A stretch of 64,000 nt of DNA from an uncultured Gemmatimonadaceae bacterium (GCA_963740355.1 CAVUDW010000002.1:832001-896000), one strand, 5' to 3'. Shown: positions 16,562 through 16,758, numbered from the stretch's first letter. The notes: generated by a model from the sequence alone, not told the origin. Program-made: numbers and translations.

Positions 16562-16584
16562 ACTGCCTCCAGGTGACGACCGCG

Positions 16585-16742
16585 CGCGCCCTGCCTTGCG
16601 AGATGCGGGATCGCGTCGGCGTCCCTGGTAGCTGTCCGGGCTTGTAGCGATCGGGACGACGGCGCTCTGACTCTGCGACGGGCTCACGGCGCCCGGGGCG
16701 CTCCGAACGAGCTGCCGCCGTCCCGGAGATTTAGCTTCTGTG
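16585..16742 (-). ncRNA. Bridge RNA with target-binding and donor-binding loops; ends approximate
   Basis: Two stem-internal-loop domains (16652-16725 and ~16589-16640). Guides ACAGCTAC and GCAAG match the donor junction; UCGCAGAG and GCGCC match the target flanks. Confidence 0.85.
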
Positions 16743-16758
16743 CGAGGAGACATACAAG

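Follow-up and report, generated by a model that had tools for sequence, protein, structure and literature searches.

Positions 15609-16758 on the minus strand of the window (the whole stretch of DNA that was analysed, 64,000 nucleotides) very probably represent an intact insertion sequence (IS) of the IS110 group, the left end of which encodes a bridge RNA of the IS621 type. The gene, ends and flanks of this element are as follows.

15609..16758, minus strand: entire IS copy together with its CT core on either side (7 genomic copies, 96-100% identity)
15626..16561, minus strand: recombinase gene, 311 aa, ATG at 16561-16559, Shine-Dalgarno sequence GGAGG at 16570-16566 (Pfam, NCBIfam and PDB matches)
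15611..15617, minus strand: left donor, formed by the right end of the IS (ACAGCTA), with core CT next at 15610-15609 (sequence, 7 copies)
16752..16756, minus strand: right donor, i.e. the IS left end TGTAT, preceded by core CT at 16758-16757 (sequence, 7 copies)
15596..15608, minus strand: right target CTGCG, the 5' arm of a small hairpin CTGCG-ATT-CGCAG (sequence, 7 copies)
16759..16775, minus strand: left target, tandem 8-bp units CTCTGCGC, of which the last 7 nt are TCTGCGC (Tandem Repeats Finder)

In silico analysis of the recombinase identified Pfam matches to PF01548 (DEDD_Tnp_IS110, 1.3e-26) and PF02371 (Transposase_20, 2.1e-15), and a match to NCBIfam NF033542 (211 bits against a cut-off of 140), under which NCBI already names such a protein 'IS110 family RNA-guided transposase'. 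A search of the PDB returned the ISCro4 recombinase (9t56, 1.2e-35) and that of IS621 (8wt6, 5.8e-33), with residues 2-303 aligned. Residues D7, E50, D92, D95 and S230 align with D11, E60, D102, D105 and S241 of IS621 (as counted along the printed IS621 alignment), and these five catalytic residues (DEDD and Ser) are invariant in 36 homologues; the protein carries both a DEDD RuvC-like N-terminal domain and a C-terminal Tnp domain with the catalytic serine. By homology, the recombinase starts at ATG 16561, with GGAGG 4 nt upstream. A mechanical ORF list runs the same frame upstream to TTG 16981 (451 aa; 15626-16981, minus strand) through the bridge RNA region, and automatic annotation could over-extend the gene in this manner. 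On the opposite strand, inside the 3' end of the recombinase gene, a terminator-like hairpin was noted at 15630-15659 (plus strand; 12 pairs followed by GTTTGCGTTT); the scan returned two terminator-like sites against a shuffle mean of 1.6, and this hairpin is probably due to chance.

The earlier note had proposed that further genomic copies be collected, and a search of the source genome (5.45 Mb, 5 contigs) yielded seven in total. Five of these (that of the window and four more) are identical over 1147 nt and lie at different loci with different outer flanks, and the two diverged copies differ from the window copy at 21 and 44 positions. The unit of 1147 nt runs from T16757 to A15611, to which the flanking core bases are added (~1.15 kb overall). 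Aligned by their ends, all seven copies span TTGTATG... to ...ACAGCTA, and similarity stops at the same places in each, allowing for the shared target motif. The CT core is present at both ends of 7/7 copies, the right flank reads CT-CTGCG(T/A)T in 7/7, and the left flank reads (C)TCTGCGC-CT in 6/7 and ACCGCGC-CT in the remaining one (L005); among orthologues the left end CTTGTAT is nearly invariant. Reading frames are open in all copies and their divergence is mostly synonymous: the recombinase gene carries 18 synonymous and two non-synonymous changed codons in one diverged copy, and 30 and nine in the other. As the 196-nt non-coding left end carries 0 and 1 changes in the same two copies, it is evidently more constrained than the protein. 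Judged on these comparisons, the element appears to be recently active.

Several other readings of the copies and their ends were considered and set aside. The presence of CTCTGCG on both sides might be taken for a target duplication of 7 bp, in which case the IS would start at CC; this was rejected because L005 lacks CTCTGCG on the left, because unoccupied sites already carry the tandem units, and because the orthologue copies L010, L011 and L171 diverge directly outside CT-TGTAT. The motif on both sides thus belongs to a pre-existing tandem array, and the insertion made no duplication longer than CT. An eighth genomic occurrence of GCGCCTTGTATG, considered as a solo IS end, was dismissed as a chance match. 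All seven copies lie on the minus strand of their contigs; however, a strand bias was rejected since contigs C2 and C3 have opposite GC skew, and relative to replication the copies are split 2 vs 5. The two diverged copies, L006 (C3:1839920-1841089) and L007 (C3:1020517-1021685), share an identical block of substitutions at IS positions 809-989, which suggests recombination or gene conversion between IS lineages. In the contigs of four DNA runs, neither a circle junction nor an empty site was found, and the unitigs from these runs end at 15604 and 16766, as expected for a repeat; a search for RNA runs containing the stretch came back empty.

The earlier note had described two stem-internal-loop domains upstream of the recombinase, and two such stem/internal-loop modules are indeed present in the ~196-nt region.

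16584..16728, minus strand: bridge RNA core with both binding modules (covariance model R1, 88.6 bits, E about 1e-15)
16653..16724, minus strand: target-binding module, its outer stem formed by 16724-16709 and 16667-16653 (A16713 bulged) and its inner hairpin at 16694-16680 (fold, covariation)
16588..16641, minus strand: donor-binding module, its outer stem formed by GCCC 16641-16638 and GGGC 16591-16588 and its inner hairpin at 16625-16607 (model alignment, covariation)

Folding and scoring against covariance models, as had been suggested, gave a divided outcome. The target module alone (16651-16726) folds at -47.9 kcal/mol with a z-score of -5.03, and 0/200 shuffles were as good, whereas the donor module takes the expected shape yet folds no better than its shuffles (z -0.03); the whole 199 nt reach z -1.88, with 8/200 shuffles as good. 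Because their folding energies are no better than those of shuffles, the reality of the donor module and of the region as a whole rests on homology and covariation. A scan of 14000-19000 against Rfam 15 (E up to 1) returned no match to a curated bridge RNA family, and a covariance model (R1) was therefore built from 18 well-aligned orthologue upstream regions (136 positions, 25 pairs). In these 18 regions the donor half is more conserved than the target half, a pattern also described by Durrant et al. 2024 (PMC11208160), and in an RNAalifold consensus the first module's outer stem emerged, supported by many compensatory pairs.

R1 gave a single match in the 64-kb window (16584-16728) and exactly seven across the 5.45-Mb genome, one per IS copy. 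Homologues of the recombinase are very numerous (8000/8000 scored candidates at E 1e-20 or better), and orthologue loci were drawn from species genomes (80 loci), metagenomes (80 loci) and the taxonomic family of the window (30 loci), with L184, which comes from an unpublished genome, left out. The model matched 98 times in the first set of 100 sources (one source twice, three without a match) and 85 times in the second set of 90, and almost all matches lie just upstream of a recombinase, in ~180 loci from many phyla. One locus among the genome contigs (L047) holds two R1 matches on opposite strands, ~60 nt apart (120-259 minus, 318-456 plus), and may represent two elements inserted head to head. 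In the first alignment (82 distinct sequences), pairing extends to 96.2% of cells, compared with 78.0% after shuffling (0/500 shuffles reach the observed value), changes on both sides occur in 22/25 pairs, and double-change cells number 342 against 83.5 in shuffles, these counts being taken from an alignment fitted to R1, which favours the structure. Compensatory changes were seen at all 13 outer-stem pairs of the target module, and in slid controls, where the partner was shifted by 1-3 columns, pairing fell to 36-51%. Given the size of the effect and the slid controls, the helices appear convincing despite the model-fitted alignment.

Within the internal loops of the two modules, the following candidate guides and handshake bases were assigned.

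16628..16635, minus strand: left donor guide ACAGCUAC, identical to 15617-15610
16595..16604, minus strand: right donor guide, discontiguous (AU 16604-16603, a 3-nt bulge CUC, GCAAG 16599-16595), pairing with CT-TGTAT
16593..16594, minus strand: donor-module handshake dinucleotide GC, complementary to GC at left-target positions 6-7
16671..16677, minus strand: right target guide CGCAG+AG, complementary to CT-CTGCG, with CT-CTGCG to the right of 7/7 copies
16697..16704, minus strand: left target guide GGAGCGC+C, of which 16701-16697 (GCGCC) alone matches the flank TCTGCGC-C (IS621 geometry; L012, L174, L175)
16669..16670, minus strand: target-module handshake dinucleotide UC, of which U can pair with left-donor A7 (as defined in Hiraizumi 2024, PMC11208158)

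These assignments follow the published pairing rules, by which each loop's 3' side shows complementarity to the core plus the right target or right donor. The left donor guide of IS621 has 8 nt, its right donor guide consists of two bases, a flipped-out bulge, a G-T wobble and four bases, and two handshake bases follow each core-binding AG (Durrant 2024, PMC11208160; Hiraizumi 2024, PMC11208158). In the window element, the guides on the 5' loop sides run in the sense of the left target and the left donor. In its donor module, ACAGCTAC at 16635-16628 equals 15617-15610, i.e. the right end ACAGCTA plus the first core base C, at 8/8 positions, exactly as the earlier note had it; by simple expectation the chance of a match at a given place is ~1.5e-5 for an 8-mer and ~6e-5 for a 7-mer. 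The pairing of GCAAG (16599-16595) with the left end, also claimed there, is likewise present, although the second part of this guide had been missed: AU 16604-16603 pairs with the A-T of TGTAT, so that the right donor guide forms four pairs, a wobble (G opposite T) and two further pairs. The equivalent guide of IS621 is A157-U158 / G161 / C162-G165 in Hiraizumi 2024 (PMC11208158). In the orthologue L015, where the donor reads TGTCT, the guide carries G instead of U. When right ends were placed without reference to the guide, at 12 nt beyond a TTGA[CT] box, and rows with CT at the predicted core were counted, the left donor guide equals the donor exactly in 49/58 orthologue rows, against a permuted mean of 14.5 and a maximum of 22. 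Additionally, target position 7 finds a partner in the donor module's first handshake base in 122/148 rows, and donor position 7 in that of the target module in 115/125 distinct loops, the latter in C/G and U/A variants.

In the target module, the right guide had been described as an 8/8 complement of the core and right flank, and the string TCGCAGAG (16678-16671) is indeed the reverse complement of CTCTGCGA (15610-15603). The part of this match that holds in all copies is the 7/7 of CGCAGAG. The eighth base, U16678, stands opposite A15603, where the other six copies have T, and right-target positions RT6 and RT7 are without signal among orthologues (0.16 and 0.25, equal to the permuted values; RT6 0.17 permuted), so that U16678 does not qualify as a guide position and the real match is 7/7. 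U16678 is, as the alignments have it, a conserved linker U that faces A by chance in the window copy only. RT1-5 match in 88-97% of 125 distinct loops against 25-32% when permuted.

The left target guide matches at 5/8 positions, comprising 4/7 non-core positions and the core C, and this holds at all seven sites; the earlier observation that this guide shares GCGCC alone with its flank therefore extends to every copy. The mismatch is GGA against TCT or, in L005, against ACC. Among orthologues LT1 and LT2 are without signal (0.18 and 0.32 vs 0.19 and 0.26 permuted) and matching rises from 0.54 to 0.78 across LT3-7, suggesting that the left guide of the clade is effectively five bases plus the core C. 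Since LT1-2 are without signal in the clade, the window guide has one meaningful mismatch (LT3), and what had been called a partial match seems close to normal for the clade; four or fewer of seven LT positions match in 42/122 loops. The core portion of this guide reads CC rather than CU, as it does in 16/105 standard-length loops. The 5' side of the target loop measures 14 nt vs 11, an enlargement common to the Gemmatimonadaceae relatives L010, L088, L169, L172 and L174, and the best register of the left guide is off by one base between L010, L169 and L172 on the one hand and L012, L174, L175, L088 and the window on the other, in a comparison where the DNA loci reach 60% identity at best, with recombinase relatives at 68-86% protein identity in existence. 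The assignment of the left target guide is accordingly uncertain by one base and is not regarded as secure. An extended left guide employing the extra loop bases was tried and rejected, as no consistent match emerged in seven loops with enlarged 5' sides.

Covariation between guides and flanks had been put forward as a check of the bridge RNA reading, and was evaluated across orthologues with left ends taken as the nearest CTTGT and right ends as the donor guide followed by CT. Loops and flanks were matched in their best register, and flanks permuted among elements (1000 permutations) served as the control. The 3' loop matches the reverse complement of RT1-5 with a mean of 4.70/5 (93/125 perfect), against 2.81 and at most 3.02 when permuted, and the 5' loop matches LT1-7 with a mean of 4.86 against 3.44 and at most 3.68 (n=122), although the permutations treat related elements as independent, whereby p-like figures are overstated. 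Wrong-strand and swapped-loop controls equalled the permuted values. The strand-specific covariation of guides with flanks is thus clear at the level of sequence and fits the bridge model.

The sites at which the copies lie were examined for shared features. Tandem Repeats Finder reports a repeat beside the IS at 16757-16775 (period 8, 2.4 copies, 100% matches), and the right flank has hairpin potential in 6 or 7 of 7 copies (read by eye). The genome contains 32 occurrences of GCGCCTCTGCG, of which three fall in arrays beside IS copies and about 29 are unoccupied, and the fully guide-matched GGAGCGCCTCTGCG occurs at one site, which is unoccupied. Arrays of CTCTGCGN units with GCAGTT-type repeats on their flanks contain most of the sites, and from its sequence context the target is probably the point where two 8-bp CTCTGCGN units meet within a REP-like intergenic array, beside a small hairpin. 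Relatives also lie between tandem units, which change along with the right target guide: L174 has CTTCGTG units and the guide CACGAAG, and L088 has CTTTGCG units and the guide CGCAAAG. Targeting of REP-type sequences is known for the family, including IS621. In the same intergenic region, ~330 bp from the IS, an unoccupied CTCTGCGN array was observed in the opposite orientation (17079-17110, plus strand; repeat units 17079-17101, period 8, 2.9 copies), carrying the full GCGC-CT-CTGCG and the hairpin that follows. The intergenic DNA at 16775-17057 and the flanks of L002-L006 contain short degenerate repeats (GTTGCC, GCAGTTTTGCGGC, GTTTTGCAGT), and the repeats around the insertions look like a REP-like family of the source genome.

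The absence of an obvious 5' stem-loop, likewise remarked upon in the earlier note, was borne out by folding: the 31-nt leader yields -0.9 kcal/mol with an open centroid, and is too short to hold such a stem-loop. The distance from the core to the start of R1 is 30 nt in the window element and has a median of 35 nt in the clade, so that most of the clade lacks room for the published 5' stem-loop. This stem-loop is conserved in the published consensus and is not essential in IS621; according to Hiraizumi 2024 (PMC11208158), its deletion lowers binding and reduces recombination only slightly. Two promoter-like boxes are found at the ends of the element.

15624..15629, minus strand: box TTGACT of the -35 type within the right end, overlapping the stop codon of the recombinase (conserved spacing)
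16749..16754, minus strand: weak hexamer TATGTC of the -10 type within the left end, where the clade consensus is TATCTT (by analogy with the junction promoter of IS621)

When the right and left ends are joined, these boxes read TTGACT, 17 nt and TATGTC, against a clade consensus of TTGACA-17-TATCTT; the -10 of the window lacks the final T. TTGAC starts 19 nt upstream of the core C in 75/118 distinct junctions. The promoter of IS621 is split across the junction of its right and left ends (Durrant 2024, PMC11208160), and by analogy a promoter across the circle junction of the window element is predicted, with a transcript that would start near 16741 and leave ~19 nt before the first stem.

Taken with the published behaviour of IS621, these features outline a putative cycle for the element. 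It would excise as a circle, as IS621 does, joining the right end (TTGACT) to the left end (TATGTC) and so creating the promoter from which a ~180-nt transcript would be produced. Each stem/internal-loop module of this RNA would be held by a dimer of the DEDD/Ser recombinase. The donor module would read the circle junction ACAGCTA-CT-TGTAT, with ACAGCUAC on the bottom strand and AU..GCAAG on the top strand, while the target module would read GCGC-CT-CTGCG, with (GGA)GCGCC on the bottom strand and CGCAGAG on the top strand. Strand exchange would then take place at the CT core, aided by the handshake bases UC and GC. For the window element itself, transcription, promoter use, RNA ends, protein binding and recombination are what we infer by analogy.

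The earlier note had recognised an architecture of the IS621 type, and the protein, the RNA, the donor and right target guides and the CT core are present in the sequence, along with a candidate left target guide. Likenesses to IS621 of E. coli (PMC11208160, PMC11208158) extend to a full-length homologous recombinase (E 5.8e-33) with DEDD and Ser aligned, a left-end RNA in which the target module precedes the donor module, an 8-nt left donor guide ending on the core C, a discontiguous right donor guide with a G-T wobble, the CT core, the same right donor TGTAT, handshake dinucleotides that immediately follow the core-binding AG on its 3' side, and a promoter split across the junction of right and left ends (predicted in the case of the window). 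The IS621 donor had been given as ACAGTAT-CT-TGTAT, in agreement with Supplementary Table 2 of Durrant 2024 (PMC11208160), and the donor and target of the window element do differ from those of IS621, as had been stated: the left donor is ACAGCTA vs ACAGTAT (3/7 positions) and the target GCGC-CT-CTGCG vs ATCGGGC-CT-AC. Compared with IS621, the right target guide is effectively 7 nt in the window element vs 4 nt, the left target guide effectively ~5 nt plus the core C vs 9 nt, with C rather than U as its second core base, the bulge of the right donor guide 3 nt vs 2 nt, and the window element, unlike IS621, is without a 5' stem-loop.

The best solved relative is the ISCro4 recombinase (PDB 9t56; E 1.2e-35, residues 3-303), the proteins alone being compared. 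The window RNA also aligns to the ACAGTTG-CT-TGTATC clade from the covariation data of Durrant (88.6 bits on a model mostly derived from this clade), whose junction ACAGTTGCTTGTAT appears at least 188 times in supplementary file 4 of Durrant and 424 times in file 5. Most of this clade, like the window element, has little leader sequence, the median distance between core and model start being 35 nt, and the window element differs from it by its left donor ACAGCTA and by the 14- vs 11-nt 5' side of the target loop. The junction of the window element, ACAGCTACTTGTAT, has 0 occurrences in the 6/7 Durrant supplementary files searched (files 3 and 4 in part). In ISPpu10 of Pseudomonas putida, as described in the available text of a preprint (bioRxiv 10.64898/2026.03.19.712850), all insertions lie in copies of one stem-loop-containing intergenic repeat, and the stem-loop, a GC-rich 5' extension, is a shown determinant of specificity in a 'dual-match' logic; the right target of the window element is also the 5' arm of a small hairpin, which in this case is known from sequence alone. 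Later work on excision and half-match recombination, in so far as its available text extends, leaves the reading of the window unchanged. As judged from its sequence, the element is orthologous to IS621 and ISCro4, belongs to the ACAGTTG-CT-TGTATC clade and adds a further member to a system that has already been well described. Thousands of IS110 bridge RNA elements have already been predicted. The IS1111 group, with its seekRNA, shares the recombinase family and the RNA-guided logic and has its RNA downstream of the recombinase; unlike this arrangement, the RNA of the window element lies upstream, as in the IS110 group.

A different account would hold that the left end is machinery acting at the DNA level (recombinase sites, sub-terminal repeats or a translational leader of the mRNA) rather than a guide RNA, and that the guide matches reflect repeated end sequences. 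Such an account could draw on the thermodynamically unremarkable donor module (z -0.03) and on ACAGCTAC, a direct repeat of the right end that DNA-binding models could equally use. However, the compensatory changes that keep the helices (22/25 pairs, 342 vs 83.5 cells) are an RNA signature, the loops covary with differing host flanks only in the strand sense of the bridge model, and the homologues IS621 and ISCro4 have been solved with bridge RNAs (PDB titles; Hiraizumi 2024, PMC11208158), and we regard a purely DNA-level role as extremely improbable. Somewhat less remote, though still improbable, is that a genuine bridge-RNA element is now inactive or nearly so in this host, its copies being an old burst spread by recombination between REP-like arrays. 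The weak -10 box, a left guide that is imperfect at every site, the roughly 29 of 32 GCGCCTCTGCG sites that stand unoccupied, and the two copies with shared substitution blocks, which suggest gene conversion, would all agree with dormancy. Against this stand five copies identical over 1147 nt at different loci and with different outer flanks, frames that are all open with mostly synonymous divergence, an RNA region that is almost invariant, and the full set of catalytic residues.

The bridge-RNA reading may also be taken further. The Gemmatimonadaceae sub-clade might use a leaner, differently weighted bridge RNA, with no 5' stem-loop, a 7-nt right target guide and a left target guide of ~5 paired bases, its specificity perhaps being completed by the structure of the target, namely a junction of tandem units beside a hairpin, which would resemble the 'dual-match' logic of ISPpu10. 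No pairing partner was found for the extra bases (UUC/GGA) of the 5' loop, which is enlarged by 3 nt in this sub-clade. We consider this further reading unlikely. Were it true, a new determinant would lie in the extra loop bases or in the target hairpin, and the element would be a naturally minimal scaffold.

For the preferred reading, an intact IS110-group element with an IS621-type bridge RNA, the significance is that raw sequence alone suffices to recognise such an RNA, and that a high-GC, Gemmatimonadaceae-related genome obeys the pairing rules already published, down to the split right donor guide and the handshake bases. The element accounts for seven insertions in REP-like arrays and marks about 29 further sites with the core motif. 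Furthermore, the family gains a natural orthologue whose donor, ACAGCTA-CT-TGTAT, is its own, whose right target guide is long and which has no 5' stem-loop; this may be of some use in the choice of compact scaffolds.
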